Notes: generated by a model from the sequence alone, not told the origin. A DNA stretch of 64,000 nucleotides from Mizuhopecten yessoensis (GCF_002113885.1 NW_018408761.1:997580-1061579); one strand, 5' to 3'. Numbered from the stretch's first letter, positions 6,446 to 57,304 are shown. Numbers and translations are program-made.

Positions 6446-6884
6446 AGGTCAACTTAGCTTTAGCTCCTGACAAAGTGTTGATAGTTTTTCGGGTCAATCA
6501 GAAATCCAATATGGCCGCCACGGCCGCCATTTTGAAAAACTATTTCAAACTTAAAGTCAAGTTCTACTGGGCCGATTGAACTGAAACTTTGTAGGAATGA
6601 TCGACTCATGGTCCTGACAAAGTGTTATTATTATATTTCGGGTCGATCAGAAATCCAATATGGCTGCCACGGCCGTCATTTTGAAAAACTATTTCAAACT
6701 TAAAGTCAAGTTCTAATAGGCCGATTGAACTGAAAATTGGTCTAGGAATGATCAGTTCATGGTCCTGACAAACTTAAGTTAACGTTATACTTAACAATTT
6801 TTTACTCAAATTGGTACATATTTCAACAACAAAAATTAATACTGTAGGACTCAGGTGACCGTTAAGGCCCATGGACCTCTTGTT
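6446..6884 (+). mobile_element. Pearl/HINE-like non-autonomous element, type B. Head is tttttAGGTCAACTTAGCT, with two ~170-bp internal monomers and tail CAGGTGACCGTTAAGGCCCATGGACCTCTTGTT.
   Basis: The same monomer recurs at 43383-43935 and 56232-56955. Terminal motifs are shared with the other families. Confidence 0.6.
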
Positions 6885-7530
6885 TTATGGTAAAATCCCC
6901 TTTAGGTTTTTGGGGGAAAGAATTAACCTTTTTGTTATCTAACTGTATGGGTCTTATGTAGAATTTCATGTTTTCCTTTATGTCTCCTAAATAGAGGAAA
7001 TTGGAGAAAACTGCATGTGCTACAACCTTTTTTTTCTTTTTCTTATATGTTTCTGGTATTTCTACCCAGTGTGGCCTTGTATGATATCACAGATAACAAA
7101 ATCCAAATTCTATTTATCAGAGATTGATGTATGAAAAGCATAAGATTTATTTTTTCTTACATTCAAAACCAGATTATAAAAGAAAACAATGCTGTGATGA
7201 AGACTTTGAAGGCTAATCTGAAGAAATAAATATATGTCGGAGTTGGGCCTACATATATAAATGTCTTTGATAGCCTGAACAAGACTTGTGTATAATGAAG
7301 TCTCAGTGAAAGTAAATGTAGTAAAACCTTTTTATACTGCCACCATTTGTTTGACAATAAATTGGAGTAATTGTTTAAAATAATTCTTAAGAAAACGAGA
7401 AAAGGGTCATTGAATTTTTTTGGCGATAAACGTGGTGCCAAATGAAACAAGGGGCATTATATCAAGGTTTTACTGTATAAACATTTCTAAAAATGTCTTA
7501 CAAAAATGTGTCCCATGTTCTCTTTTGCAG

Positions 7531-14649: not shown

Positions 14650-16212
14650 TAGGTCACCTGGTTGGATTTTTTTCAAACTTGGTCAGAATCATCCTTGGTA
14701 GATGAGGCTACAAAATTGTAAAATTGGGATTCCTACCCCAACCCCTGGGGCCAGGGCGGGGCCCCAAAGGGAAAATTAACCAATATTTCAAAAATCTTCT
14801 TCTTCAGACTCAGAGGTACTACATTTTCTCTACACGAAAAGAAAGATCATCAGTGGCTTTACTTAAATTGTAAATTTCAGGACCCCCAAGCTATCCGTTC
14901 TCCCTTGGGGAGGGGGTAAAGTTTACTATAGTTTATATAGGGAAATAACACTTTTGGGTATATTTTGACAACTTTCTGTAGGAAATTATTTTTACTTGGT
15001 GAGAATTATCCTTGGAGGTAGATGGTTTCAAATTGTAAAATTGAGATTCCTACCCCGACCCCTGGGGCCAGGGCGGGGCCCCAAAGGGAAAATTAATCAA
15101 TATTTCAAAAATCTTCTTCTCCAGACTCAGAGGTACTACAGTGATTTTCTCTACGTGGAAAGAAAGATCATCAGGGGCTTTACTTAAATTGTAAATTTCA
15201 GGACCCCCGAGCTATCCGTTCTCCCTTGGGGAGGGGGTAAAGTTTACTATAGTTTATATAGGGAAATAACACTTTTGGGTATATTTTGACAACTTTCTGT
15301 AGGAAATTATTTTTACTTGGTGAGAATTATCCTTGGAGGTAGATGGTTTCAAATTGTAAAATTGAGATTCCTACCCCGACCCCTGGGGCCAGGGCGGGGC
15401 CCCAAAGGGAAAATTAATCAATATTTCAAAAATCTTCTTCTCCAGACTCAGAGGTACTACAGTGATTTTCTCTACGTGGAAAGAAAGATCATCAGGGGCT
15501 TTACTTAAATTGTAAATTTCAGGACCCCCGAGCTATCCGTTCTCCCTTGGGGAGGGGGTAAAGTTTACTATAGTTTATATAGGGAAATAACACTTTTGGG
15601 TATATTTTGACAACTTTCTGTAGGAAATTATTTTTACTTGGTGAGAATTATCCTTGGAGGTAGATGGTTTCAAATTGTAAAATTGAGATTCCTACCCCGA
15701 CCCCTGGGGCCAGGGCGGGGCCCCAAAGGGAAAATTAACCAATATTTCAAAAATCTTCTTCTCCAGACTCAGAGGTATTACAGTCATTTTCTCTGCATGG
15801 ATGGAAAGATCACCAGGGGTTTTATTTAAATTGTAAATTTCAGGACCCCCGAGCTATCCGTTCTCCCTTGGGGAGGGGGTAAAGTTTACTATAGTTTATA
15901 TAGGGAAATAACACTTTTGGATATATATTTTATCCATTTTCAGCAGAAAATTACTCAAACTTAGTCAGAATCATCTTTGGTGAATGAGAGTATTACTTTG
16001 GGAATCCTGTCCCATCCCCAGGGGCTAGGGCGGGGCCCCAAAGGGAACATTTACCAATATTTTCAAATTCTTATCCTTTGATGTCATGACAAGTATTGTA
16101 TTTCACTTAGTTTACATGCTGATTTCCACTTCACATCTAAACAATAAAATAAAGCTACCAGTACCTATGATATAACTCAGGTGACCGCTAAGGCCCTTGG
16201 GCCTCTTGTTTT
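14650..16212 (+). mobile_element. HINE-like element, type F, carrying 4.6 tandem copies of a 321-bp monomer. It begins 87 bp after the exon-12 donor.
   Basis: Head ttttttAGGTCACCTGG, period-321 copies at 14640, 14961, 15282, 15603 and 15924, and tail CAGGTGACCGCTAAGGCCCTTGGGCCTCTTGTT. Confidence 0.7.
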
Positions 16213-18650: not shown

Positions 18651-19403
18651 ATGGGCAGGTGAGCTAATGCCATGGCACAGCGTTCGTCGTTCTTCGTCCA
18701 TCCATCCATCAACTTTTCCTTTAAAACACTACTTGTCCTGAATGGCCTAGTAGATTTTGACTAAATTTGGTCTGGAGCATCTTTAGGCTAAGGGGACTCA
18801 ATGTTATATAAATGGTGGGTGTGGACTCCCTTGGGGCAGACGGGTGGGGACGAATAGGGGAAATTGAGGTAAAACATTTAAAATCCTTCTTCTACCATAG
18901 CAATTAAGGGATTATATCTTAATTTGGTCTGGAGCATCCTTGGACTAAGGGGACTCAATGTTGTATAAACGGTGGGTTTAGACCCCCTTGGGGCAGAGGG
19001 GTGGGGCCAAATAGGGGAAATAGAGGTAAACTTTTAATATATTTCTTTTACCATAGGGATCAAGGGATTTCATCCCAATTTATTTTTGGAGCATCCTTGG
19101 GCCAAGGGGACTCAATTTTATATAATTGGTGGGTTTGGACCTCCCTGGGGCAGAGTTGCATCACCCAATAGGGGAAATAGAGGTAAAAAACTTTGAAATC
19201 CTGCTTATACAATAGGGATCAATGGATTTCCGGGTGAGGCCTCTCTGGGTGCTGAGAGTTGCGGGGCCAAATAGGCAAAAGAGAAATTCGAGGTTTTAAT
19301 CTTTAAATTCTTTCTTCTTCTCCATTGGAGGGATTTTATGTAATAAAAATAATTTCCCATTATTGCTTTATTATCCAGGTGAGCGATACTGGGCCTCTTG
19401 TTT
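18651..19403 (+). mobile_element. HINE-like element, type C, with a ~190-bp monomer (ggggactcaatgttgtataaa...ggggcagaggggtggggccaaatagggg) x3.5. The left end is truncated.
   Basis: Tail CCAGGTGAGCGATACTGGGCCTCTTGTTTT at 19375-19403. Confidence 0.6.
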
Positions 19404-20122: not shown

Positions 20123-20573
20123 GTAAGATTATATAAACACCCATAACTGTCAACCCCTGCCTCATTAGGAGGAAGACCTCCTCATTTTGACCAAAATTTA
20201 CCAATTTCCCTCATTCAAGTCCAAACTCACACAAACGCAAAATCTACATCCTGTGGTCAAATGATCTCCTAGTTACTGCAGGGCGGTTGAGACGATCCTA
20301 ACAGGTATGTGTGAATCAAATGAAGTTTTTTTGGAGCTTATTTATTTGATGCATTAAAAGGGGAAAATAAATTGAGCAAATCAGTTTCTGTCATGTTTCA
20401 CACACTTTCCCCCTCGTTTGAAATGTGGAATGAGAGATCCCTGTCATTGGAGGTTTCAGAGGCTGACACCTACAAATACAGGGCAGACTTTTGTGTTCAT
20501 TCATGAGTCGTGGTGTATTTTGTTTTAATTGAATACTGTAAACATACACATTTTGGCAAACTTTTGATTTTTT

Positions 20574-33506: not shown

Positions 33507-33677
33507 GATGAACACTCAAGTTCAGAAGGCATGCCGTCCAGGTATTTCTGGTGTTAAAGTGGAGTGGCAGCAAAACATGGACACGACCAACAGACCTCTT
33601 CAGGCCCCTAATCACATCCCAAGTTTGTTTTCTGGGTCACGACAGGTCGTGTATGGCTTTGTACCTAACTGTACACA
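33507..33677 (+). CDS. PARP4: PARP4 exon 23 (MNTQVQKACRPGISGVKVEWQQNMDTTNRPLQAPNHIPSLFSGSRQVVYGFVPNCTQ).
   Basis: Aligns to human MTRLCSPSCHSVSVKWQQLNPDVPEALQAPAQVPSLFLNDRLLVYGFIPHCTQ. Donor CAG|GTGAGA. Confidence 0.9.
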
Positions 33678-35840
33678 GGTGAGAATTTTTATTACACTGA
33701 TGTGCTGGTAAGCAGGGGTTCAACTAGTTATATCTTTGTATGGCTTTGTACCTAACTGCACACAGGTGAGAATTTTTATTACACTGATGTGCTGGTAAGC
33801 AGGGGTTCAACTACTCCCCTCGGTAGGGACAAGTTATATCTTTGTATGGCTTTGTACCTAGCTGTACACAGGTGAGACTTTGTATTACACTGATGTACTG
33901 GTAAGCAGGGGTTCAACTACTCACCTCGTTAGGGACAAGTTATATCTTATCTTTGTATGGCTTTGTACCTAACTGTACACAGGCGAGAATTTTTATTACG
34001 AGGATGTGCTGGTAAGCAGGGGTTCAACTACTCGCCTCGTTAGGGACAAGTTATATCTTTGTATGGCTTTGTACCTGAATTTAGGCAGGGGAGGCTTTGT
34101 ATTACACTGATGTGCTGGTAAGCAGGGGCTCAACTACTCACCTCGGTAGGGACAAGTTATATCTTCATATGGCTTTGTACCTAACTGTACACAGGTGAGA
34201 ATTTTTATTACGAGGATGTGCTGGTAAGCAGGGTTTCAACTACTCACCTCGGTAGGGACAAGTTATATCTATGTATGGCTTTGTACCTAACTGTACACAG
34301 GTGAGACTTTTTATTACGAGGATGTGCTGGTAAGCAGGGGTTCAACTACTCCCCTCGGTAGGGACAAGTTATATCTTTGTATGGCTTTGTACCTGAATTT
34401 AGGCAGGGGAGGCTTTGTATTACACTGATGTGCTGGTAAGCAGGGGTTCAACTACTTATTTCTGGTGTTAAAGTGGAGTGGCAGCAAAACATGGACACGA
34501 CCAACAGACCTCTTCAGGCCCCAAATCACATCCCAAGTTTGTTTTCTGGGTCACGACAGGTCGTGTATGGCTTTGTACCTAACTGTACACAAGTGAGAAT
34601 TTTTATTACGAGGATGTGCTGGTAAGCAGGGTTTCAACTACTCACCTCGGTAGGGACAAGTTATATCTTCATATGGCTTTGTACCTAACTGTACACAGGT
34701 GAGAATTTTTATTACACTGATGTGCTGGTAAGCAGGGGTTCAACTACTCCCCTCGGTAGGGACAAGTTATATCTTTGTATGGCTTTGTGCCTAACTGTAC
34801 ACAGGTGAGACTTTGTATTACACTAATGTGCTGGTAAGCAGGGGTTCAACTACTCACATCGGTAGGGACAAGTTATATCACGCTTTATATCTAGATAAAA
34901 TAAAACGAGTTCATTACAAAGATGACCGGACAAAAAATGATGTATTCAATATCAATATCAATATTGATATATCTTTGTATGGCTTTGTACCTAACTGTAC
35001 ACAGGTAAGACTTTGTATTACACTGATGTACTGGTAAGCAGGGGTTCAACTACTTACCTCGTTAGGGACAAGTTATATCTTTGTATGGCTTTGTACCTAA
35101 CTGTGCACAGGTGAGACTTTGTATTACACTGATGTGCTGGTAAGCAGGGATTCAACTAGTTATATCTTTGTATGGCTTTGTACCTAACTGTACACTGGTG
35201 AGACTTTGTATTACGAGGATGTGCTGGTAAGCCGGGGTTCAACTACTCACCTCGGTAGGGACAAGTTATATCTATGTATGGCTTTGTACCTAACTGTACA
35301 CAGGTGACACTTTGTATTACGAGGATGTGCTGGTAAGCAGGGGTTCAACTACTCCCCTCGGTAGGGACAAGTTATATCTTTGTATGGCTTTGTACCTAAC
35401 TGCACACAGGTGAGAATTTTTATTACACTGATGTGCTGGTAAGCAGGGGTTCAACTAGTTATATCTTTGTATGGCTTTGTACCTAACTGCACACAGGTGA
35501 GAATTTTTATTACACTGATGTGCTGGTAAGCAGGGGTTCAACTAGTTATATCTTTGTATGGCTTTGTACCTAACTGCACACAGGTGAGAATTTTTATTAC
35601 ACTGATGTGCTGGTAAGCAGGGGTTCAACTAGTTATATCTTTGTATGGCTTTGTACCTAACTGTGCACAGGTGAGACTTTGTATTACACTGATGTGCTGG
35701 TAAGCAGGGGTTCAACTACTCACATCGGTAGGGACAAGTTATATCACGCTTTATATCTAGATAAAATAAAACGAGTTCATTACAAAGCTGACAGGACCAA
35801 AAATGATGTATTCAATATCAATATCAATATTGATTATATT
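33651..35840 (+). repeat. Tandem satellite (~108-bp unit, ~20 copies) derived from the 3' end of PARP4 exon 23 plus its GT donor and the start of the intron. It includes a 180-bp partial re-duplication of the exon at 34440-34620 and an 880-bp higher-order period.
   Basis: The unit ctttgtatggctttgtacctaactgtacacagGTGAGAatttttattacactgatgtgctggtaagcaggggttcaactactc.cctcggtagggacaagttatat repeats head-to-tail. Its first copy is the authentic exon end. Confidence 0.85.
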
Positions 35841-41999: not shown

Positions 42000-42087
42000 G
42001 TTATGGAAGCAGCTGAAAGATTTTTCTCCTGTTCTAAAGATGACATTAGCCAAAATATGTTGGCAGAGTTTCGGAAAAGTTTTCCTT
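42000..42087 (+). CDS. Exon encoding VMEAAERFFSCSKDDISQNMLAEFRKSFP, which joins in frame to the ubiquitin-like exon. Either an alternative PARP4 exon or the first coding exon of a nested UBL gene (ATG at 42003).
   Basis: Acceptor ttttcaaag, donor GTAAGT. Phase 0 in, phase 1 out, exactly matching the UBL frame of the next exon. Confidence 0.45.
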
Positions 42088-42549
42088 GTAAGTATTAAAA
42101 TATGTTACTTAATATGTAAATGAGTGATAAGCTAGACAGACTATCCTGTATGTGCAGATTTGGCAGAGAAGTTAACACTCATGTCTCCCACAAACGCTGG
42201 AATGCAATCCCTTGAGCTATTTTAGCATGGATTTTCATTCCTCAGAGCTTTTGCAGCATAGATTTTTCAGAGAACATGTTTTTCTCCAATAATCCAGACG
42301 GAGAATTAAATTGTCTGCAGTGGGTGCTATAGTGACTGGGATGTAACAATCAAGTGAGATGTCACTGTGGTGAAAGATTTAATTAATACACCAGCCCACT
42401 GCACGACACAAACAAATGGAGATTTAGACGGAGCCTTTCCTTCTAATGTCTGTAGTTACTGTGTACCAGATGTTGATAATACTCTTTTCATATCAAAATA
42501 TATTTTGAAAAAAGAATTGATGAAAGTTTTACATTTATTCCCATTGCAG

Positions 42550-42726
42550 TCCCAATCGAGATACACACCCTGACTGGTAGGACTATCCCCGTGAGTGTGT
42601 CCGAGGGCGACACCGTGTCTGACTTGAAGAATAAGATCCATCAGATAGATGGACTTGACCCAGAGCAGCAGAGATTGATTGTTGGTGGGAAACCGCTGAA
42701 GGATCTCGCTGTTCTCTCCGATCTTG
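42550..42726 (+). CDS. Ubiquitin-like domain exon, first part (FPIEIHTLTGRTIPVSVSEGDTVSDLKNKIHQIDGLDPEQQRLIVGGKPLKDLAVLSDL).
   Basis: About 40% identical to ubiquitin residues 1-58 (TLTGKTI, DQQRLIFAGKQL, TLSDY). Acceptor ccattgcag, donor G|GTAATT. Confidence 0.7.
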
Positions 42727-42744
42727 GTAATTATACCCCACATA

Positions 42745-43166
42745 ACGTTGTATAAACGGTGGGTCTGATCCCCATTTGGGACAGAGAGGCGGGGCTTTAA
42801 TATCCTTCTTCTTCCGTTGGGATGAAGGTATTTTGACCAAACTTGAACAGTAGCATCCTATGGGGAAGGGAAATCCATATTAGGTCTAATGCATCCTTGG
42901 GTGAAGGGGACCTAATTTTGTATCAATTGTGGGTCTAACCCTCCTATGGGCAAAGGGGCGGGGCCCAATAGAGGAAACATAGCAAATTCTTCAAATCCTC
43001 CTTTTCCTGTAGGAATGACAAGATTTTGTCCAATTGCATATAAATATAATCCCTGACTAATCATGTAATACATGTACATTTCCAGCATCATCTGGCTATT
43101 TCAACTTCAATTTTGCTAACATTTCCAGGTGAGCTATACAGGTCCTCTGGGCCTCTTGTTTTTTTT
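42745..43166 (+). mobile_element. 5'-truncated type-C HINE-like element, beginning 18 bp after the donor of the UBL exon.
   Basis: C monomers followed by tail CCAGGTGAGCTATACAGGTCCTCTGGGCCTCTTGTTTT. Confidence 0.6.
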
Positions 43167-43382
43167 ATTTTATGAAACTCAACAAATGTAATCTTACACC
43201 ACACTCTGAAGTGTTGCTTTTCTTTTTTTCATCAAATAGTGGGCTGTTCAAATCACTATTCATCTGTGGTCTGTCTTCCATTCATCATTCAGTCCATCCA
43301 TCCATCCATTTGTCCTTAAACAATTCTTGATAGTGCTATTTCTCAGAGAGATCTTTCTCAAGTTTCACCTGAAGGTTCCCTT

Positions 43383-43935
43383 TGTTCCCTAGTTATGCTT
43401 ATCAAATTAAGGGTCCTGACAAAGTGTTGTTATTTTTCGGGTCGATCAAAATTCCAATATGGCCGACATGGCCACCATTTTGAAAAAAAACAATTTCAAA
43501 CTTAAGGTCAAGTTCTGCTGGGCCGATTAAACTTAAACTTTTTAGGAATGATCGACTTATTGTCCTGACAAAGTGTTGTTATATTTCGGGTCAATCAGAA
43601 ATCCAATATGGCCACCACGGCCCCCATTTTGAAAAACTATTTCAAACTTAAAGTCAAGTTCTAATGGGCCGATTAAACTGAAACTTTGTAGGAATGATCG
43701 ACTCATGGTCCTGACAAAGTGTTGTTATTTTTCGGGTCGATCAGAAATACAATTTGGCTGCCATGGCCGCTATTTTGAAAATAACTATTTCAAACTTAAA
43801 ATCAAGTTCTAATAGGCCCATTTAACTGAAACTCTTTCTAAGAATGATCAGCTCATGGTCCTGACAAACTTAAGTTAACGTTATACTTAACTATTTTTTA
43901 CTCAAATTGGTACATATTTCAACAACAACAAAAAA
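43383..43935 (+). mobile_element. Type-B element (three ~170-bp monomers), truncated at both ends.
   Basis: The monomer tcctgacaaagtgttgtt...atggccgccacggccgccattttgaaaaa...cgactcatgg is the same as at 6446 and 56232. Confidence 0.55.
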
Positions 43936-44742
43936 TCTTGGATTTCAACAGTTCAGTTTGTTGTCACTTTTTCCCATAAAGTCCTTAAACAATAAGCATT
44001 GTACTAGTAAATAGGTAAAACAACCAGCTCGCTTTGAAAGAACAGTGTCATACACAGCAGAATGAAGGCTTTGCTCAAAAGTTACCACAATTAAGGTGCG
44101 TTACTGTTAACGTGACTCAATCTTACAGATAAGAGAGAAAAGAAGAATCTTACATAGAATCTATGAAGATAATAAGAATAATATCTTTTATTTAACCAGG
44201 GTTACATATTTAGACAATGTCTAGTTTACAATATGGCGCTGAAGCAAACTATATATACAAGCATGACAACAATTTAAGATAACAGTATAACACTGCAGTA
44301 TATGGTATCATCACAGTCAATGTAACTTGAAGTTAAGTAATCCTAAATTAGAATTTAATAGTGAACACTTGCATATCACACGAGTGTTACTGAATGATAT
44401 GGTTAAAGCATAGTCAAATATACATAATATGTTAATATGGCAAAGCGTAAAAAATGACAAGATATACACCAATTAGTCCAATATAGTGTGTATTAAAATG
44501 AGACAAAGAAGTCGGTGGTGTGAAAAATAATAATTTATGATAGAAATATGATGGTACGATAGTCGGTGTCAAGGTCCCCCGGGGATCTCTTGTTTTAAAA
44601 GACAGAAAGATGTGAAAATGAAAATAAAGCATTAATGGGGAAAATAAAACACGAACTGCTAAAGAGGTTAATGTCGTTTTCTTTAAGGCAGTGGCCAATC
44701 ATATCGTCCACAGTCATATCTAAAAGCAGATCTATGCTTTTT

Positions 44743-46463
44743 AGCTCACCGGCCTGAAGGGCAAGTGAGCTTATGCTATGGCGCGGCGTCAGGCATCCGT
44801 CATCTTTTCCTAAAAAACGCTACTTGTCATAAACGACTGAGCAGATTTTGACCAAATTTGGTCAGAAGCATCCTTATGGGAAGGGGAACAAATTTTGTAT
44901 AAATGGTGGGTCTGGCCCCCTAGGGGCTGAGGGGTGGGGCCCAATAGGGAAAATATAGCAAATTCTTTAAAATCCTTCTTCTTTTGTAGGAATAAAAGGA
45001 TTGGTTCCATATTTGGTCTGAAGCATCCTTGGGGGAAGAGGAACCAATTTTGTATAAATGGGGGGTCTGGCCCCTGAGGGGCCTGAGCGACAGGCCAAAT
45101 AGGGGAAACATAGCAAATTCTTTAAAATCCTTCTTCTGTAGGAATGAAAGGATTTGTTCCATATTTAGTCTTAAGCATCCTTGGGTTAAGGGGAACCAAT
45201 TTTGTATAAACTGTGGGTCTGGCCCCTTTGGGGCCTGAGCGACGGGGCCCAATAGGGGAAACATAGCAAATTCTTTAAAATCTTTCTTCTGCAGGAATGA
45301 AAGGATTTGTTCCATATTTGGTCTGAAGCATCCTTGGGTGAAGTGGAACCGATTTTGTATAAGCAAGGGGTCTAGCCCCCATGGATCTGAGGGGCGGGGC
45401 CAAAAGGGGTCAATTGCGCTATATTGATTTAAGCGACTTCTTCTCTGGAACTAAGAGATGGATATCAACCATATTTGACTGGAAGCATCCCTCTGTAGTG
45501 GAGATTCACAATTGTACAAATGGTTGGGCTGACATCCCAGGGGGCTGAGGTGCGGGTCCAAAAGGGCGCAATTTGGCTATATTGGTGTACGACTTCTTCT
45601 GTAGCATTATACCATGGATATCGATCATATTTGGTCAGAAGCTTTCATGGGAAGTAGGGATTCAAAATTGTACAAATGGTGGGGCTGACCCCCCGTGCTA
45701 AGGGGTGGGGCCAAAAAAAGTTTATTACTTGGAAATGGTTGAGATCCCAACCATATAACCATATATATAATTGTGGAGTATGAAGAGAAGCATTCACATT
45801 TGCTTCAAGGATGGCCTAGGGTCTGGCCCCACCCTTTGAGACATAGTCCCTGGGTCATATCTTTGAAACGATTGAGATCCGCACCCCAGAACTATATATA
45901 CAAATGCTTGGCATAAAGAGACAAAAGTAGTCATGGTATTAAAATAGACCCTGGGGTCTGACCGAACCCCTAGGGACCTAGTTTCTTAGTCACAGCTTCG
46001 AAACAGTTGAGATCCCCACCCTATAACTATGCATATATACAATTGCTGAGTATAAAGAGATGAATGCACATATGCTTCCAGGATGGCCTTGGGGTCTGCC
46101 CAAACTTTGCAGACTTAACCCCTGGGTAAATATAACTTTGAAACAGTTGAGATCCCCACCCCAAGACTATAAATACAAATGCTAGACAAAAAGAGACGAA
46201 TATAGTCATGATATTATAATTGATCCTGGCGTCTGGCCACAACCCGAGGGATCTAGTTTCTGAGTCACAGCTTGGAAACAGTTGAGATCCCCACCCCATT
46301 ACCATACATTAAATTGCTGGGCATGAAAAATCTAATACAGACATACTACAAGAATTGACATTGGGGTCTGGCATATACCCTTGGATCTCATTTGGAGAAT
46401 ATTTTGCTTTTTGATTGCTTAGATATTCAGGTGAGGAATTCAGGCCCTCTGTGCCTCTTGTTT
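44743..46463 (+). mobile_element. Composite HINE-like element, copy 1. It runs head hairpin, type-C monomers, a ~180-bp transition monomer, ~150-bp type-D monomers (gaaacagttgagatccccaccc...) and tail. It lies in the intron just upstream of the terminal UBL exon.
   Basis: Head tttttAGCTCACCGGCCTGAAGGGCAAGTGAGCTTATGC, tail CAGGTGAGGAATTCAGGCCCTCTGTGCCTCTTGTTT. The same architecture is repeated twice downstream. Confidence 0.7.
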
Positions 46464-46593
46464 ACCATAAGAATACATCATATTTGATTGAGAGGATGTG
46501 CTTTTAGAGGTGGCAGCTGTTTTGATACAACGTTATGTGAGGGCATGAGTTAGCCTCTATATAACAATTGTATTTTTTTTCTATATTCTTCAG

Positions 46594-46700
46594 ATCTGGA
46601 GTATAATGCTGTCTTCCTGTTACCAAGGCTGCGAGGGGGACTTAGTTTTGGTCTCAAGGAAGATTTGAAAACAAAGCGTATTCTCGCGGAAAACGTATGA
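46594..46700 (+). CDS. Ubiquitin-like domain terminal exon (DLEYNAVFLLPRLRGG + LSFGLKEDLKTKRILAENV, stop TGA at 46698-46700).
   Basis: Completes the UBL with the RLRGG C-terminal motif. The phase-1 junction with 42726 restores the frame. Acceptor ctatattcttcag. Confidence 0.65.
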
Positions 46701-46780
46701 TATGACAATAAGACATAAAATGTGGATTCCACTCTCAAAAATCTAAGGGTGGGGTAGAAAGTGGTTTATTGGACATTTTT

Positions 46781-48636
46781 AGCTCACCTGCCCGAACGGC
46801 AAGTGAGCTTATGCCATGGCGCGGCGTCCAGCATCCTTCAACTTTTCCTAAAAATCGCTACTAGTCATAAACGACTGAGCAGATTTTGACCAAATTTGGT
46901 CAGAAGCATCCTTATGGGAAGGGGAACAAATTTTGTATAAATGGTGGGTCTGGCCCCCCTGGTGGCTGAGGGGTGTGGCCCAATAGGGAACACATAGTAA
47001 ATTCTTTAAAATCCTTCTCCTTCTGTAGGATTGAAAGGATTTGTTCCATATTTGGTCTGATGCATCCTTAGAGAAAGAGGAACCAATTTTGTATAAACCG
47101 TGGGTCTGGACCCCGAGGGGCCTGAGGGGTGGGGCCCAATAGGGAACACATAGTAAATTCTTTAAAAACCTTCCTCTTCTGTAGGAATGAAAGGATTTGT
47201 TCCATATTTGGTCTGAAGCATCCTTAGGGAAAGAGGAACCAATTTTGTATAAACCGCGGGTCTGGCCCCCGAGGGGCCTGAGGGGTGGGGCCCTATAGGG
47301 ATCACATAGTAAATTCTTTAAAATCCTTCCTCTTCTGTAGGAATAAAAGGATTTGTTCCATATTTAGTCTGAAGCATCCTTGGGTAAAGGGGAACCAATT
47401 TTTTATAAACCATGGGTCTGGCCCCACAGGGGCCTGAGCGACGGGGCCCAGTATGGGAAACTGAACAATTTCTTTAAAATCCTTCTTCTCTGTAGGAATG
47501 AAAGGATTTGTTCCATATTTGGTCGGAAGCATCCTTCGGTGAAGGGGAACCAATTTTGTATAAACAAGAGGTCTGGCCCCCAGGAACTTGAGGGGCGGGG
47601 CCAAAAGGGGGCAGTTGCGCTATATTAATTTAAGCGACTTCTTCTCTGGAACTAAGGGATAGATATCAACCATATTTGACTGAAAGCATCCCTCGGAAGA
47701 GGAGATTCAAAATTGTACAAATGGTTGGGCTGACCCCCCGTGCTAAGGGGTGAGGGTTGCTATTAACGACTTATTCTGTAGAATTATGCTAAGGATATCA
47801 ATCATATTTGGTCAGAAGTATTCATGGGAGGTAGGGATTCAAAATTGTACAAATGTTTGGGCTGACCCCCCTGTGCTAAGGGGTTGGGCCAAAAAAGGTT
47901 TATTACTTGGAAATGGTTGAGATCCCCGCGGTATAACCATATATACAATTGTGGAGTATAAAGGGAAGCATGCACATTTGCTCCCAGGATGGCCTAGGGT
48001 CTGGCCCCACCCTTTGAGACATAGTCCCTGGGTCATAACTTTGAAATGATTGAGATTTCCACCCCAGAACTATATATACAAATGCTTGGCATATAGAGAC
48101 AAAAGTAGTCATGGTATTAGAATAGACCCTGGGGTCTGACCGAACCCCTAGGGACCTAGTTTCTTAGGCAAAGCTTCGAAACAGTTGAGATCCCCACCCT
48201 ATAACCATGCATATATACAATTGCTGAGTATGAAGAGATGATTGCACATATGCTTCCAGGATGGCCTTGGGGTCTGCCCCACCCTTGCAGACTTAACCCC
48301 TGTGTCATAACTTTGAAACAGTTGAGATCCCCACTTTAAAACTATATACAAATGCTGGGCTTAAAGAGAAGAAACCAGTCATGATATTAAGAATTGATCC
48401 AGGGGTCTGGCCACAACCCTAGGGATCTAGTTTCTGAGTCACAGCTTGGAAACAGTTGAGATCCCCACCCCATAACCATACATTAAATTGCTGGGCATGG
48501 AAAATCTAATACAGACATACTACAAGAATTGGCATTTGGATCTGGCATATTCCCTTGGATCTCATTTGGAGAATATTTTGCCATGATTGCTTAGATATCC
48601 AGGTGAGCGATTCAGGCCCTCTGGGCCTCTTGTTTT
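46781..48636 (+). mobile_element. Composite HINE-like element, copy 2, beginning 81 bp after the stop codon of the UBL exon.
   Basis: Head tttttAGCTCACCTGCCCGAACGGCAAGTGAGC, tail CCAGGTGAGCGATTCAGGCCCTCTGGGCCTCTTGTTTT. Confidence 0.7.
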
Positions 48637-48768
48637 TTAAATCTACTCTTCATGAATGATAGGTTTCTTCAGTACCTTTAAATTGTGAATGCAATTACCC
48701 TGATGTCTCCCATTCACCACTGGGAAGGGGGAAATTCTGCTACATTTCCTATGGTTATAACAGCTTTT

Positions 48769-50482
48769 AGCTCACCTGGTCCGAAGGACCAGGGTGAGCT
48801 TATGCCATACCATGGCATCCGTCGTCCGTACGTACGTCAACAATTTCTTTAAACGACTTCTTCTTCTTAACCACTGGTTGGAATTAAACTAATTTTGACT
48901 GGAAGCATCCCTAGGTGGTTGGGATTCAAAATTGTACAAATGGTGGGGCTGACTCCCCAGGGGGCTGAGGGGTGGGGCCAAAAGGGGTCAATTTGCCCAT
49001 ATTGCTGTAAGCGACTTCTTCTCTGGAACTAAGAATTGGATATCAACCATATTTGACTGGAAGCATCCCTAGGTGGTGGTGATTAAAAATTGTACAAATG
49101 GCGGGGCTGACTCCCCAGGGGGCTTAGGGGGGGCCAAAAGGGGGCAATTTTGCTATATTGCTACAAACGACTTCTTCTGTAGAACTGTGCACTGGATATC
49201 AATCATATTTGATCAAAAGCATTCCTGGGAGGCAGGGATTTAAAATTGTACAAATGGTGTGGCTGACCCCCCAGGGGGCTGAGGGGCAGGGCCAAAAAGG
49301 GTATTTGGCTATACTGCTTTAAGTGACTTCTTCTCTGGAACTAAGTGATGGATATCAACCTTATTTGACTGGAAGCATCTCTAGGTGGTGGAGATTCAAA
49401 ATTGTACAAACGGTTGGGCTGACCCCCCAGGGGGCTGAGGGGCGGGGCCAAAAGGGGGCAATTTGGTTATATTGCTATAAATGACTTCTTCTGCAGAACT
49501 ATGCCATGGATATTGATCATATTTGGTCGGAAGTATTCATGGGAGGCAGGGATTCAAAATTGTACAAATGGTGGGGCTGACCCCCCGGGCTAAGGGGTGG
49601 GGCCAATAAAATGTATTACTTGGAAATGGTTGAGATCCCCACCATATAACCATATATACAATTGCTGAGTATAAAGAGAAGAATGCACATTTGCTTCCAG
49701 GATGTCCCTAGGGTCTGGCCCCACCCTTGGAGACATAGTCCCTGGGCCATAACTTTAAAACGGTTGAGATCCCCACCCCAAAACTATATATACAAATGCT
49801 GGGCATAAAGAGACGAATGCAATCATGATATCAGAATAGACCCTGGGGTCTGACCGAACCCCTAGGGACCTAGTTTCTTAGTCACAGCTTGGAAACAGTT
49901 GAGAGCCCCACCCTATAACCGTATATATACAATTGCTGAGTATAAAGAGATGATTGCACATATGCTTCCAGGTTGGCCTTGGGGACTGCCCCACCCTTGG
50001 AGACTTAACCCCTGGGTCATAACTTTGAAATGGTTAATATCCCCACCCCAAAACTATATATACAATTGTTGGGCATAAAGAGACGAATGCAGTCATGACA
50101 TTAGAATTGATCCCAGGGTCTGCCCCACCCTTGCAGACTTGGCCCCTGGGTCATAACTTTGAAACGGTTGAGATCCCCACACCAAAACTTTATATACAAA
50201 TGCTTGGCAAAAAGAGACAAATGCAGTCACGATATTAGAATCGATCCTGGGGTCTGGCCACAACTCTAGGGACCTAGTTTCTGAGTCAAAGCTTGGAAAC
50301 AGTTGAGATCCCCACCCCATAACCATACATAAAATTGCTGGGCATGAAAAATTTAATATAGCTATGCTACAAGGATTGGCCTTGGGGTCTGGCATATTCT
50401 CTTGATCTCATTTGGAGAATAGTTTGCCATGATTGCTTAGGTATCCAGGTGAGCGATACAGGCCCTCTGGGCCTCTTGTTTA
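48769..50482 (+). mobile_element. Composite HINE-like element, copy 3.
   Basis: Head cttttAGCTCACCTGGTCCGAAGGACCAGGGTGAGC, tail CCAGGTGAGCGATACAGGCCCTCTGGGCCTCTTGTTT. Confidence 0.7.
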
Positions 50483-50559
50483 TTTATCCTCAGCAGAAAA
50501 TAATTCAGTTCAATTTTTGTTATGGCATGGCATCGATATAGAATCTATTTTAGTTGTTG

Positions 50560-51000
50560 TACAACATAAAGATTTGTGGTTAAATTCTAAGCTATGAGAT
50601 ATGAAGTCTCTCTTACTCACCGGTACTCAGTATAACATGAAGATTTGTGGTTAAATTCTTAGCTATGAGATATGAAGTCTCTCTTACTCACCGGTACTTA
50701 GTATAACATGAAGATTTGTGGTTAAATTCTTAGCTATGAGATATGAAATCTCTTTTACTTGCTGTATAACATGAAGATTTGTGGTTAAATTCTTAGCAAT
50801 GAGATATGAAATCTCTTTTACTTGCTGTATTATATGGAGATTTGTGGTTATATTCTCAGCTATATGATATAGAATCTCTTTTACTTGGTGTATAATATGG
50901 AGATTTGTAGTTATATTCTCAGCTATATGATATAGAATCTCTTTTACTTGCTGTATAACATGTAGATTTGTGGTTAAATTCTCAGACATGTGATATAGAA
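50560..51000. repeat. ~63-bp minisatellite x7 (atgaagatttgtggttaaattcttagctatgagatatgaa.tctct.ttact...), 230 bp upstream of the low-complexity ORF.
   Basis: Direct reading. The minus-strand ORF 50684-50989 is an artifact of it. Confidence 0.8.
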
Positions 51001-51232
51001 TATCCTTTACATGGGGAAAATATGAAGTTTGTTGGTAAATTATTAGCTATTTTTAGTGAACATTGATTAATCAGCCTTAATATTTTTACTTTTGTCAGTT
51101 AAACTATATTTAGTCACTATACTCAATGTAAACTTCTTAATAATACCCACAAAAACCACAGAAGCAATGATTCATGAGTTTACTATTGTACAGTACAGGT
51201 ACATGTGAAGTATTAACATTTCTGTATTTCAG

Positions 51233-51459
51233 GACATGAATGAGTATGATCAGATATATGGTAAGAAGGTGCATACGGAAAAGGACAAAAGCTGTACTGA
51301 TGATGGAAAAAACCCGGTGAAGATGTCCTCATTGTTTTCTCCTTTTAGGCAATCCTTACGAATGATGGCTCCAAGGAAACAGTTAGCAACCAAAGCTGCC
51401 AGAAAATCTGCACCTGCAAACTTTGATGAAAATGAGGAGGAGCAGAATGAGGATGACAG

Positions 51460-51497
<38 letters not shown>

Positions 51498-54337
51498 TTG
51501 AAAAGATGGGCAACTTTAGCTGCATGGCACTTCCAGATGACAACGTGGTTGATGATGCTACGAACAAGAAACAGGAAGTGTCAGATGTAGGAAGAATACC
51601 AGACTCTCCACTCTCAGCAACACAGTTTGGCCCCTTGTCTCCAAAATGTTCAGATTCATTTGGTACAAACTTTGAAAAATTTGAAATCTCTCAGTATTTA
51701 GATGAAGACATGGAGATTGATTTAGATACTGAAGACCCGGCATTCCTCATTCTCACTTCTGAAATATCTGACATATTTTCACCTTCAATGGCAGGCCATT
51801 CTCAGGACACTCCAGCCTATATATCAACCTCCCCATCTTACAAACCAACTTCCCCATCCTATTCGCCCACTTCCCCATCTTACAAACCAACTTCCCCATC
51901 CTATTCGCCCACCTCCCCATCTTACAAACCAACTTCCCCATCCTATTCGCCCACCTCCCCATCTTACAAACCAACTTCTCTATCCTATTCGCCCACTTCC
52001 CCATCTTACAAACCAACTTCTCCATCCTATTCACCAAATAGAAGAGCACGAAGAGCCAAATCAACATTTGAGGATTTCCAACATGAATCAACATCAAACA
52101 ATAAAGATTTTGTGGTTTCAGGTTCAAGACAAGCAAAGTCAAGCAGCACATCTAGTGAACATGGTTTGTGTGGAGCTCCAGTGCAAGCAGAACCAGGCAG
52201 TAAACCAAGTCAGAGCTTCAATTTTAATGCTTCGCTACAAACAGCATCAAGCAATGAACCAACACAAAGTTTGGGATTGGGGGCTCCAAACCTAGCAGAA
52301 CTAGGCGGTAAACCAAGTCAGGGGTTCAATTTTAGTGCTCCTCTAGTAACAGCATCAAGAAATATATCAACACAAAGTTTGGGATTGGGGGCTCCAAACC
52401 TAGCAGAACCAAACACAATGCCAAGTCAAGGGTTTTCCTTTGGAGCTCGAATGCAAACAACTCAAAGCGCTTCACCAGCCGAAGGTTTCAGTTTTTCTCA
52501 GAATCAAACATTGCAGAGCATTACCAGTAAAGGAAGCCATTGTTTTGGATTTGGGACTTCAAAACCAGCCGGAGCAAGCAGAACGACAAGTCAAGGGTTT
52601 TCCTTTGGCGCTCAAATGCAGTCCCAACGATGCAATATACCAACCCAAGATTTCTATTTTGGAGCTTCAAATTCAGCAGGTTTTGGAGATGACGGTGACA
52701 GACGTGGTGGTTATGGAGGTGTCAGTGTTAGACCTGGTGGTTATGGAGATGACAGTGACAGACGTGGTGGTTATGGAGGTGTCAGTGTTAGACGTGGTGG
52801 TTATGGAGGTGTCAGTGAGGGACTTGGTGGTTATGGAGGTGTCAGTGTTAGACGTGGTAGTTATGGAGGTGACAGTGTTAGATGTGGTGGTTATGGAGGT
52901 GTCAGTGAGGAATGTGGTGGTTATGGAGGTGTCAGTGAGGGACTTGGTAGTTATGGAGGTGTCAGTGAGGGACTTGGTAGTTATGGAGATGACGGTGTCG
53001 GACGTGGTGGTTATGGAGATGACAGTGTCGGACGTGGTGGTTATGGAGGTGACAGTGTCGGAGGTGATGGTTATGGAGGTGTCAGTGAGGGATTTGGTGG
53101 TTATGGAGGTGACAGTGAGGGATGTGGTGGTTATGGAGGTGTCAGTGTTAGATGTGGTGGTTATGGAGGTGTCAGTGAGGGACGTGGTGGTTATGGAGGT
53201 GACAGTGAGGGACGTGGTGGTCCTAGACTTGCTGGTTCTAAAGATGGACATGTTTCTTACATAGAAACAGCACCAACATTTACATATTTGAAGGATCTTG
53301 ACTTGAATTTAGCAAAACATGATCCAAAAACTAGGATATTGAAGGAAAATGACAGAAGACCTTCCAGTGTAACAGAGAAGGATCTGCCTTCACAGCCTTT
53401 CAGACATGTACAGGATAAAATGTTCCCACCAGACTTTGATGAATCCTTATTACCTAAACAAAAGAGAAAAATTCCTCCTGTTGGAAGAGGAGGTTCTGGA
53501 TTCACTGCAAGGAATGACCAGGGTCCTGCTGAAACAACCAAAGAACAAGGTCGAAGGTCATTAAAGTCAGTCAGAGGCGCAATGCATGGTGCAAGATCAA
53601 GAGACAGAAATAGGGAACAATCTCGTGAGCTTATTGTGCTGGATAAGAGTAAAAAACTAAGTTTGAGTCATGACAGAAGGCGGAGGAGTTTGAGTAGAAG
53701 TTTGAGTCGAGACAGAAGACAGAGGAGTTTGAGTAGAAGTTTGAGTCGAGACAGAAGGCGGAGGAGTTTGAGTAGAAGTTTGAGTCGAGACAGAAGGCGG
53801 AGGAGTTTGAGTAGAAGTTTGAGTCGAGGAAGGGGGAGAAGAGACTTGGAAAGATGTTACAGTAGAGATAGAGCAAGAAAGGAAAATAAAAAAATGCACA
53901 GATCAAGTGGAAATAATGATACAAACAGTAGGAATAAAAATAGGGACAAAGCAGGAAGCAAAATAGACAGAGATCCTGCAAGAGAAAGTAAGAAACAGAT
54001 AAAGCATAAAAATGAAAAGAAGGAGCAAACAAAGGCTGATGAACAGGTTGTCAAAACATTTGGGAAAAAAGGGAAGAAAAGGGAACAGACAAGGGATGAT
54101 GAAGAGATTGTCAAAACTGGAGGGAAGAACCTGTCAGGAAAGTTGGAATATGATGATCATGAGAAAATGGACTTTACAGTGGACATGGCACCAACTTTGA
54201 AAGTCTGGGATGTAACATCAGAGACAGGCAAGGACATTGTGAAATTCATAAAGTATATTTCTGATTCAATCTTCTTTTATATACAAAAGATCTGTAATTT
54301 TCTACAAATTCAAGTGAGCTTAAGTGAACTTTCTTGA
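51233..54337 (+). CDS. 3.1-kb open reading frame (giant exon or intronless gene) encoding a modular low-complexity protein. Its modules are a histone H3(15-31) mimic, a poly-Asp tract, RNAPII-CTD-like heptads, FG repeats, GGYGG repeats, an RS domain and a K/E tail. It is probably the large low-complexity exon of the PARP4 ortholog.
   Basis: Uninterrupted 1033-codon ORF. The acceptor tttcag at 51227-51232 lies immediately after an in-frame TGA at 51206. Phase 0 is compatible with PARP4 exons 27 or 28. Human PARP4 also has a large S/P-rich low-complexity region at this position. Confidence 0.7.
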
Positions 54338-55636: not shown

Positions 55637-55737
55637 GTAAGTATGACAATGTTGAAGTTGGACTGTCTAAAGAAATATTAAACTTACTTATTGAAGAAAT
55701 GAAGAAAACTATTAAGAAAATCAATTTTGTGGTTTTT

Positions 55738-56230
55738 AGCTCACCTGGCCCCTTGGCCCATGCCGTGGTGCGGCATCCGGCGTCAATATTTTACTTTAAA
55801 CAACTTCTCAATAACCAAAAGGCCCTAGGTACTGATATTGGGCCTGCAGCATGCTGGGATGAAGGGCTACCAAGTTTGTTCAAATGAATGACCTTGACCC
55901 ACTTTCAAGGTCACAGGAGTCAAATATCTTAAAATCTTCAAACAACTTCTTCTCAATAACCAAAAGGCCCAGGGTACTGATATTGGGCCTGTAGCATGCT
56001 GGGATGAAGGGCTACCAAGTTTGTTCAAATGAATGACCTTGACCCACTTTCAACCCAATATCCTTGTTCGACATTCAAGGTCACAGGCGTCATATGTTTA
56101 AATCTTGTAATAGGATCTTATGAATCAAACACTGATATTCTGCCTGTAGCTGTATTTTAGTCCACTCTTAAGATTACAAGTGTGAAATAATACCAGGTGA
56201 GCGATGCAGGCCCATTGGGCCTCTAGTTTT
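55738..56230 (+). mobile_element. Type-A HINE-like element with two monomers.
   Basis: Head tttttAGCTCACCTGGCCCCTTGGCCCATGCC, tail CCAGGTGAGCGATGCAGGCCCATTGGGCCTCTAGTTTTT. Confidence 0.65.
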
Positions 56231-56231
56231 T

Positions 56232-56955
56232 AGGTCACTTGAGCTTAAGCTCAATTGACCTATTGTTATCCGTCTTTGTCCGTCGTCTTCCGTCGTGCGT
56301 CGTCAGTCGTGTGTCGTCATTTTACATTTTCAACTTAAGCTGAAATACTGGCAAAGGGATTTCATTAATATTTCATGGGAAGTTTACTGACATTTTCCAG
56401 ACAAAGTGTTAATATTTTTCGGGTCAATCAGAAATCCAATATGGCCACCACGTCTGCTATTTTGAAAAACTATTTCAAACTTAAAGTCAAGTTCTGCTAA
56501 GCCGATTGAACTGAAACTTTGTCGGAATGATCGACTCATGGTCCTGACAAAGTATTGTTATTTTTCGGGTTGATCCGAAATCTGATATGGCCGACATGGC
56601 CGCCATTTTGAAAAACTCTTTCAAACTTAAAGTCAAGTTCTACTGGGCCGATTGAACTAAAACTTAATAGGAATGATCGACTCATGGTCCTGACAAAGTG
56701 TTGTTATTTTTCGGGTCGATCAGAAATCCAATATGGCCACCAAGGCCGCCATTTTGAAAATAACTATTTCAAACTTAAAGTCAAGTTCTGCTAGGCCGAT
56801 TTAACTGAATCTTTTTAGGAATTATTGACTCATGGTCCTGACAAACTTAAGTTAACGTTATACTTAACTATTTTTTACTCAAATTGGTACATATTTCAAC
56901 AACAAAAATAAATACTGTAGGACTCGGGTGACCGTTAAGGCCCATGGGCCTCTTG
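56232..56955 (+). mobile_element. Type-B HINE-like element, inserted directly abutting the previous element.
   Basis: Head AGGTCACTTGAGCTTAAGCTCAATTGACCT (palindrome), three ~170-bp monomers, tail GGTGACCGTTAAGGCCCATGGGCCTCTTGTT. Confidence 0.65.
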
Positions 56956-57304
56956 TTATAATTATGTTTTAAGTACAATAATGCATACAGAAGTATTTTG
57001 TTTTCTTTTATTATCTTTTAGGATAGCTATTTAAATGTTTTGTTCATGAGTAACTGTAATGGAAACCAGCCTTCAGGAGAATATTCTCTTATTTATTTGC
57101 TTTTTATTACAAGGGCTTCTGTATACCACTAGGTATCCTCCTTAAACCTAGAAGAAGAATGTAATACTTCGATGTATAATGGATATTCGATTTCTACACT
57201 TGATTTCAACTCATTAATTATTGGAAACATTACAGAATTCTGCTGCTGATATATCACACATTAAATCAAATTGAATTAAATTTGAATGCAAAATTCACTT
57301 TCAG

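Follow-up and report, generated by a model that had tools for sequence, protein, structure and literature searches.

The window analysed here, a 64,000-nucleotide (64-kb) stretch of Mizuhopecten yessoensis DNA (GCF_002113885.1 NW_018408761.1:997580-1061579), carries on its + strand: (i) a PARP4-like gene, with exons for BRCT, PARP, VIT and VWA domains and a C-terminal ubiquitin-like (UBL) domain, and (ii) three full-length, co-linear repeat units of the same strand, one of which lies in the last intron of this gene while the other two follow its terminal coding exon (Table 1). The units, referred to as copies 1 to 3, are very probably non-autonomous Helentron-type rolling-circle elements (HINEs) that were inserted separately at three T-rich sites. 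A preliminary description of this DNA had reported three copies in one orientation; self-BLAST of its three intervals supports that report and displaces the coordinates by only 1-4 bp.

Copies 1 and 2 are 88% identical across 1.6 kb, and copy 3 is 77-79% identical to either of them across about 1.4 kb (self-BLAST). Each copy has a head that consists of a T-run (TT) and AGCTCACC(T/G)G...GTGAGCTTATGC, including GTGAGCT, and a tail that reads CAGGTGAG(C)GAT-N-CAGGCCCTCTG(G/T)GCCTCTTGTTT. Against an expectation of 0, the window has 6 occurrences of the 23-nt tail motif, all on the + strand; for the 12-nt head motif, 23 are observed and 4.5 expected. The last 60 bp are 83% identical between copies 1 and 2, 83% between copies 1 and 3 and 95% between copies 2 and 3, with TTAGCTCACCTG the same in copies 2 and 3. 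Under the criterion of Thomas et al. (2014, PMC4067079), this range of 83-95% places copies 1-3 in one subfamily; both the 3' ends and the subterminal repeats assign them to a single family. The left flanks of the elements are 91% identical between copies 1 and 2, whereas that of copy 3 is only 69% identical to either.

The termini of the copies have the substructures expected of HINEs. The 5' subterminal inverted repeat (subTIR) begins within 2-4 nt of the terminus and reads TT/AGCTCACCTG(G) in copies 2 and 3; copy 1 differs by one mismatch (CCGG), and heads of further elements in the window carry the motif as well. A complementary inverted repeat (IR) is found 5-16 nt from the 5' subTIR and forms a 5' hairpin with it, the arms of which are 12 nt in copies 1 and 2 (83-92% complementary) and 8+8 nt, perfectly paired, in copy 3. 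The DNA-fold energies of these hairpins are -9.9, -10.1 and -15.4 kcal/mol for copies 1, 2 and 3, respectively (z = -2.1, -2.6 and -5.7). Copy 3 retains a microsatellite remnant (GTCC/GTAC; CCGTCGTCCGTACGTACGTC), and sister elements at 20572 and 18653 have a clear (GTCY)n. On the 3' side, the subTIR CCAGGTGAGCGAT of copies 2 and 3 is the reverse complement of the 5' GCTCACCTGG in 10 of 10 nt. After it comes the palindrome AGGCCC-TCT-GGGCCT (6 bp, 3-nt loop), which ends 7 nt from the terminus and is intact in copies 2 and 3; its fold of -5.7 kcal/mol is, for so short a stem, not significant as a value alone. The palindrome motif is kept in 6 elements of the window and in 3 scallop-derived contigs. 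The junctions are T-runs (..TTT/TTAGC.. and ..CTTGTTT/) with no flanking direct repeat apart from the T's. The earlier designation as a satellite-carrying transposon is borne out by this anatomy, which fits the HINEs of oysters, clams and Drosophila (PMC7492417, PMC4067079, PMC3879986).

Other classes were considered. A canonical Helitron (5'-TC...CTRR-3', A/T target) was rejected, as the elements begin with a T-run plus AGCTC, end with CTTGTTT and have a T-rich 5' flank. A structured RNA or a tRNA-derived short interspersed element was also rejected, with no match in an Rfam scan of 42000-51500 at E <= 0.1. The element tail and head have no match in two prokaryote genome scans and one viral scan, and a literature search with literal head, tail and monomer sequences returned only irrelevant matches.

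Between the termini, all three copies carry two successive arrays of like orientation: 5-7 monomers of ~156 bp, then 5-6 monomers of ~135 bp. Tandem Repeats Finder recovers three array blocks at 44.8-50.4 kb with periods of ~153-156 bp and ~134-135 bp, the latter scored also as dimers of 270-275 bp, and the spacing of anchor motifs is 152-158 bp in the first array and 133-140 bp in the second. The monomer periods are accordingly ~153-157 bp (about 155) for type C, ~156 bp for type T (the 'transition' monomers of the preliminary description) and ~133-140 bp (about 135) for type D, and the sizes of 190, 180 and 150 bp given previously are incorrect by both measures. Copy 1 is composed of 3 C, 1 C/T hybrid, 2 T and 5 D monomers, copy 2 of 4 C, 1 C/T hybrid, 2 T and 5 D, and copy 3 of 5 T-type, 0 C and 6 D. 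Thus, the claim that every copy has the same internal order holds fully for copies 1 and 2 but not for copy 3, which is without C monomers and has a different left flank. An all-against-all comparison of the monomers of the first array distinguishes four classes: type C (c1m1-3 and c2m1-4, mutual identity 85-95%), the C/T hybrid (c1m4 and c2m5, 92% identical), type T (c1m5, c2m6 and c3m1-4) and a truncated final T monomer that is common to all copies (c1m6, c2m7 and c3m5, 92-93% identical). The D array plus tail is 92.5% identical between copies 1 and 2, 89.4% between copies 1 and 3 and 90.4% between copies 2 and 3, with positional orthology in all three and one additional 135-bp unit in copy 3. 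Open reading frames (ORFs) of 92-148 aa on the minus strand of the copies recur with the monomers and were treated as spurious.

Relatives of the copies are found in the window and beyond. An nhmmer profile built from the tails, with window matches counted at E < 0.01, detects 11 tails, and at least 8 further elements beyond copies 1-3 share the termini and differ in their interiors. The subfamily that bears the D array is represented in the window by copies 1-3 only. A scan of one metagenome contig collection found the tail in three NSIT01 contigs (NSIT01000446/620/414, loci L001-L003), which derive from a king scallop (Pecten maximus) tissue metagenome (PMC5772249). The 37-nt tail of these contigs fits the search pattern exactly (33 specified bases, 4 free positions), their ~156-bp C-/T-like monomers share about 73-79% identity with types C and T of the window, and a D-like unit is located directly upstream of the 3' subTIR. 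By contrast with the 5-6 units arrayed in the window, the D-like unit of the contigs is single; their monomers are also diverged, and their flanks are unrelated. By itself, the shared HINE family would indicate a bivalve host for the window.

These comparisons bear on how the arrays evolve. The internal arrays change through gain and loss of monomers, as seen in the extra C pair of copy 2 and the extra D of copy 3; the 95% identity between c2m2 and c2m3 points to a monomer of copy 2 having been duplicated recently. The segment ahead of the arrays in copies 1 and 2 resembles the C-only element at 18653, the array that follows is likewise similar to a C-only HINE, and their right end is nearly identical to that of copy 3. 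This suggests that the subfamily of copies 1 and 2 may have arisen by recombination between a C-only HINE and a T+D HINE, joined via the hybrid monomer. In the scallop-derived locus L001, positions 470-685 align with 48430-48635 of the window and hold a single D-like unit directly before the 3' subterminal repeat. A unit that is single in this relative suggests that the D array of the window may have arisen by amplification of a right-flank segment.

The elements belong to a known kind of bivalve mobile element and are ordinary repeat biology, not a new system. Among the Cg_HINE group of Crassostrea gigas, 11 elements are described, including two that carry a pair of consecutive arrays (Vojvoda Zeljko et al. 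2020, PMC7492417). The described architecture of these elements, especially Cg_HINE_10_13 and Cg_HINE_11_12, is like that of copies 1-3: a 5' subTIR, an IR, a GTCY-type microsatellite (vestigial in the copies), arrays of 140-180-bp monomers, a 3' subTIR and a palindrome. The two groups also share two different consecutive arrays, a monomer orientation that is fixed relative to the flanks, T-rich (TT) junctions with no evident target-site duplication (TSD), and a location in and beside genes, with several oyster copies in one gene (bindin). They differ in host: between the PARP4-like protein of the window and a homologue from an oyster (Saccostrea), identity is only about 53%. They differ also in that the second array here (about 135 bp) is apparently derived from the right flank and one subfamily here appears chimeric via the hybrid monomer. 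The substructures that define HINEs were set out for elements of mites and mosquitoes and for DINE-1 of Drosophila (Thomas et al. 2014, PMC4067079). Likenesses to HINE/DINE-1 (PMC4067079; Yang & Barbash 2008, PMC2374699) include subTIRs with a length of about 11-13 bp, of which the 5' one is separated from the terminus by 2-4 nt; an IR that neighbours this subTIR, central repeats and a microsatellite, which is vestigial here; a short stem-loop at 8-35 bp from the 3' terminus, boundary T strings and a TT/T-rich target; and frequent residence in introns and gene flanks. By contrast, the copies have no sequence similarity to the Drosophila core, and about 24 nt separate their 3' subTIR from the terminus (first base at 36-37 nt), compared to 38-60 bp in mite families. 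The pearl elements of C. virginica and DTC84 of Donax trunculus (PMC3879986) are similar by description, with modules that comprise flank L, a core of 1-5 repeats, a microsatellite of tetranucleotide units (ACGG, complementary to CCGT) and flank R, and with short subterminal/terminal inverted repeats, AA/TT ends and ordered arrays of monomer variants. Unlike copies 1-3, pearl and DTC84 have a single array, are described in the opposite orientation and are interpreted as MITEs (miniature inverted-repeat transposable elements) of the terminal inverted repeat (TIR) type. Their descriptions are the HINE architecture read on the other strand.

The exon enclosed by copies 1 and 2 is the end of the PARP4-like gene, for which the best database matches are PARP4-like proteins of molluscs (53-61% identity). 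The two UBL exons join in frame, with the acceptor side providing the remaining two bases of the split codon, and the terminal exon encodes the final UBL beta-strand, an LRGG motif and a short tail. The spliced peptide matches Pfam ubiquitin (PF00240) with an E-value of 4e-16 (59 bits; cut-off 25.4) and aligns over the exon junction with residues 1081-1151, the C-terminal UBL, of a PARP4-like protein from the gastropod Batillaria. Other invertebrate PARP4-like proteins (P0097 and P0112) also have a C-terminal UBL that ends in LRLRGG. The in-frame junction, the Pfam match and the homologue alignment together confirm that a UBL terminal exon lies between copies 1 and 2, as first proposed, and the stop codon precedes copy 2 by 81 bp, as also stated. 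On the other side, 130 bp separate the end of copy 1 from the acceptor of this exon.

The proximity of the stop codon to copy 2 raises the question of where the transcript ends. The 80-bp gap from the stop codon to copy 2 has no AATAAA or ATTAAA, and the first AATAAA after the stop codon is in one C-type monomer of copy 2. Sister monomers read AATGAA at this site; thus, AATAAA is not a conserved feature of the element. According to the preliminary description, the 3' untranslated region (UTR) and poly(A) site 'must' be inside the element or past it, which is plausible but too strong, since the gap includes the variants AATAAG (46707) and CATAAA (46714). An extension of the 3' UTR into copy 2 is plausible but is not a necessity. 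For the PARP4-like gene, the elements are most likely passengers. A broader reading, in which Helentrons would follow a strand rule in transcribed DNA (through replication- or transcription-coupled integration, as for bacterial HUH transposases, or through orientation-dependent purifying selection) and the UBL-ending PARP4-like transcript would take its poly(A) signal and 3' UTR from copy 2, is unlikely.

In the proposed mechanism, a Rep/helicase-endonuclease from an autonomous Helentron would act in trans, as judged from the family. The enzyme would recognise the 5' subterminal repeat and hairpin together with the 3' subterminal repeat and palindrome, and the DNA between these ends would move via a single-stranded or circular intermediate with no TSD. 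The copies very probably entered three separate T-rich sites, which fall within about 450 bp of host DNA once the elements are removed: the first is in the last intron, 130 bp ahead of the terminal exon, the second 81 bp past the stop codon and the third a further 133 bp on.

The copies are arranged head to tail in one orientation, are similar in size and, for copies 1 and 2, are highly alike, features that would also be expected from a tandem segmental duplication of an element-plus-flank block with subsequent divergence, as the preliminary description had considered. The copies and their flanks were aligned, as suggested there, and the flanks share nothing while the copies do. In a blastn comparison (word size 7, E <= 1) of the upstream 500 bp (44243-44742), the two spacers (46464-46780 and 48636-48768) and the downstream 500 bp (50483-50982), there is no mutual similarity, and the matches are limited to self matches and to chance ones of 14-30 nt. 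The exon is not duplicated, and each copy stops exactly at the family termini. With flanks and spacers unrelated, elements 78-92% identical and ends complete, segmental duplication is rejected and is regarded as highly improbable. The other option offered previously, repeated homing, is retained in part: the unrelated flanks favour repeated insertion, of which homing as a directed process would be only one possible form. Helitron-type elements capture flanking DNA when the terminator is missed. Such capture, discussed in PMC8268682, would underlie a read-through (3'-end bypass) rolling-circle move of a composite in which several elements and the host DNA between them travelled as one unit, and the damaged 3' hairpin of copy 1 is in keeping with it. 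However, the DNA between the copies holds an in-frame UBL exon for a domain conserved in invertebrate PARP4-like proteins, which marks it as resident host sequence, and no second copy of a spacer is found in the window; the read-through scenario is thus extremely improbable. A more serious variant of separate insertion is that a founder near the exon gave rise to later copies, made from the founder or from each other, that landed within a few hundred bp, as opposed to three unrelated arrivals of copies from distant masters. The like orientation of all copies, the restriction of the D-array subfamily to this cluster, and the specific hybrid monomer and monomer order common to copies 1 and 2 are consistent with local re-insertion. 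By contrast, copy 3, with its 69% left flank and no C monomers, is not a simple copy of 1 or 2, and the 7.5-22% divergence among copies fits diverged masters equally. Local re-insertion is possible but is the less expected course of events.

Several observations weigh against the classification as separately inserted HINEs. The microsatellite module is vestigial in copies 1 and 2, where only GGCGTC..GCATCCGTC is left of the GTCY microsatellite, and the 3' signals of copy 1 are mutated, with a degenerate subTIR (CAGGTGAGGAAT) and a change in one arm of the palindrome. No Rep, helicase or endonuclease ORF is present in the 64-kb window; thus, with no autonomous Helentron there, rolling-circle mobilisation rests on structural classification. 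The T-rich junctions are equally compatible with a 2-bp TT duplication, and the termini and lack of a TSD were deduced without an empty site, none being present in the window or in the metagenome, prokaryote or viral collections scanned for the termini. Finally, three sites within 450 bp of ancestral DNA have a p of about 0.03 in a simulation of 11 elements in about 52.8 kb of non-HINE DNA, and three consecutive D-bearing copies among 11 elements a p of 0.05; both values are post hoc, the locus having been flagged because it is clustered. Clustering tighter than uniform insertion may reflect a local target hot spot or local re-insertion. The junctions and the inverted repeats near both ends also permit the elements to be read as cut-and-paste MITEs with an AA/TT 2-bp TSD, moved by a TIR transposase and not by a Helentron Rep/helicase, an interpretation that was adopted for pearl and DTC84 (PMC3879986) and considered for DINE-1 (PMC2374699). 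However, both inverted repeats are subterminal, and their distances to the termini are asymmetric (2-4 nt on the 5' side, about 24 nt on the 3' side). The elements also have a 3' palindrome, and the same architecture is tied to autonomous Helentrons with shared ends in mites, mosquitoes, Drosophila and other taxa (PMC4067079) and was adopted for oyster (PMC7492417). The MITE interpretation is thus quite improbable, and assignment to the HINEs is preferred.

Table 1. Coordinates of features at the PARP4-like locus, counted from the first nucleotide of the window; HINE is the probable class of the elements.
Feature	Position	Strand	Remarks
Upstream UBL exon	42550-42726	+	..PIEIHTLTGRTIPVSVSEGDTVSDLKNKIHQIDGLDPEQQRLIVGGKPLKDLAVLSDL + 1 nt; ends ...LSDL; donor G/GTAAT; phase 1
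5'-truncated HINE	42745-43161	+	C-type monomers only, intact tail; ~20 bp past donor of upstream UBL exon
HINE copy 1	44741/3-46463	+	1.72 kb; end T-runs ambiguous
Copy 1 5' hairpin	44743-44771	+	
Copy 1 C/T array	44857-45730	+	~155-bp monomers
Copy 1 D array	about 45725-46330	+	~135-bp monomers
Spacer 1	46464-46778	+	317 bp between copies 1 and 2; unique; holds terminal exon
Terminal coding exon	46594-46700	+	(D)LEYNAVFLLPRLRGGLSFGLKEDLKTKRILAENV and stop; acceptor ttcttcag/ at 46593/46594; TGA 46698-46700
HINE copy 2	46779/81-48635	+	1.86 kb; same subfamily as copy 1
Copy 2 5' hairpin	46781-46809	+	
Copy 2 array of 7 C/hybrid/T monomers	46895-47907	+	then 5 D monomers
Candidate poly(A) signal AATAAA	47342-47347	+	first after stop codon; in one C-type monomer of copy 2
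Copy 2 3' subTIR	48599-48611	+	
Copy 2 palindrome	48614-48628	+	
Spacer 2	48636-48766	+	133 bp between copies 2 and 3; unique
HINE copy 3	48767/9-50481	+	1.72 kb
Copy 3 5' hairpin	48769-48800	+	longer
Copy 3 array of 5 T-type monomers	48894-49622	+	then 6 D monomers
Copy 3 3' subTIR	about 50445-50457	+	
Copy 3 palindrome	50460-50474	+	
HINE tail ends in window	6885, 16211, 19403, 21494, 37118, 43161, 46463, 48635, 50481, 56229, 56957	+	
HINE-monomer G-quadruplex stretches	14747-16045, 18833-19017, 44923-44949, 47117-47300, 48960-49458	+	

Further HINE-type sequence is found around and beyond the three copies. Another HINE-like family, with 146-bp monomers, is represented at 43270-43870 and 6536-6885. 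The former stretch has a (GTCC/ATCC)n microsatellite in front and no recognisable head or tail, while the latter continues into a tail of the family type. Together with the HINEs, the 146-bp-monomer stretch at 43270-43870 makes the last intron of the PARP4-like gene (42727-46593) largely HINE-derived. Downstream, two HINE-type elements (55736-56229 and 56230-56957) abut tail to head with no spacer (..GGGCCTCTAGTTT/TTAGGTCACTTGAGC..).

None of the 11 HINE tails of the window is on the minus strand; all are on the + strand, which is that of the PARP4-like gene and of the downstream long ORF. For independent insertions, the two-sided binomial p of this co-orientation is 0.001. The + strand has 15 canonical G-quadruplex motifs, (G3+N1-7)x4, of which 14 lie inside HINE monomers, in the conserved block GGGGC-GAGGGG-GGGGCC-AA-AGGGG; the minus strand of the whole window has only 2. 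The 3' subterminal repeat reads CAG/GTGAGC, which fits the metazoan 5' splice-site consensus, at 48601-48609 and 50447-50455, and has equivalents in every HINE tail. Thus, a donor-like site is present in each sense element, about 30 nt ahead of the terminus.

A further repeat resides in another intron of the PARP4-like gene, where 33650-35718 is a tandem array of about 20 units of 87/106 bp. In each unit, the final ~29 nt of a PARP4-like exon (..VYGFVPNCTQ) are followed by the GTGAGA donor of that exon and by the first 60-77 nt of the intron, such that many copies of a splice donor are stacked in one intron. A second copy of most of the same exon, 88.5% identical, is located at 34457-34691. 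Downstream of the copies, a 1033-aa ORF (51236-54337, + strand) has about 10 SPSY(K/S)PT heptads like those of the RNA polymerase II C-terminal domain, followed by GGYGG/RGG and further repeats. Near its N-terminus are 16 residues that we take to be identical to residues 16-31 of the histone H3 tail. Pfam assigns no family to this ORF or to a neighbouring ORF of 459 aa, and an exact-protein look-up with a 207-aa ORF of the window returned no match.

For annotation, 5.3 kb of the locus are to be masked as HINE/Helentron repeats, while the exon between copies 1 and 2 is to stay as the true end of the PARP4-like gene with its C-terminal ubiquitin-like domain. The locus serves as a case study of: (i) the gain of a second satellite array in a Helentron derivative, which may have occurred through amplification of a right-flank segment, (ii) apparent recombination between subfamilies via homologous monomers, and (iii) dense packing of elements around an exon without its disruption. 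One window is insufficient for a general statement; the strand bias, or a part played by the elements in 3'-end formation, would be relevant to target choice by rolling-circle transposons in animals if either were true genome-wide.

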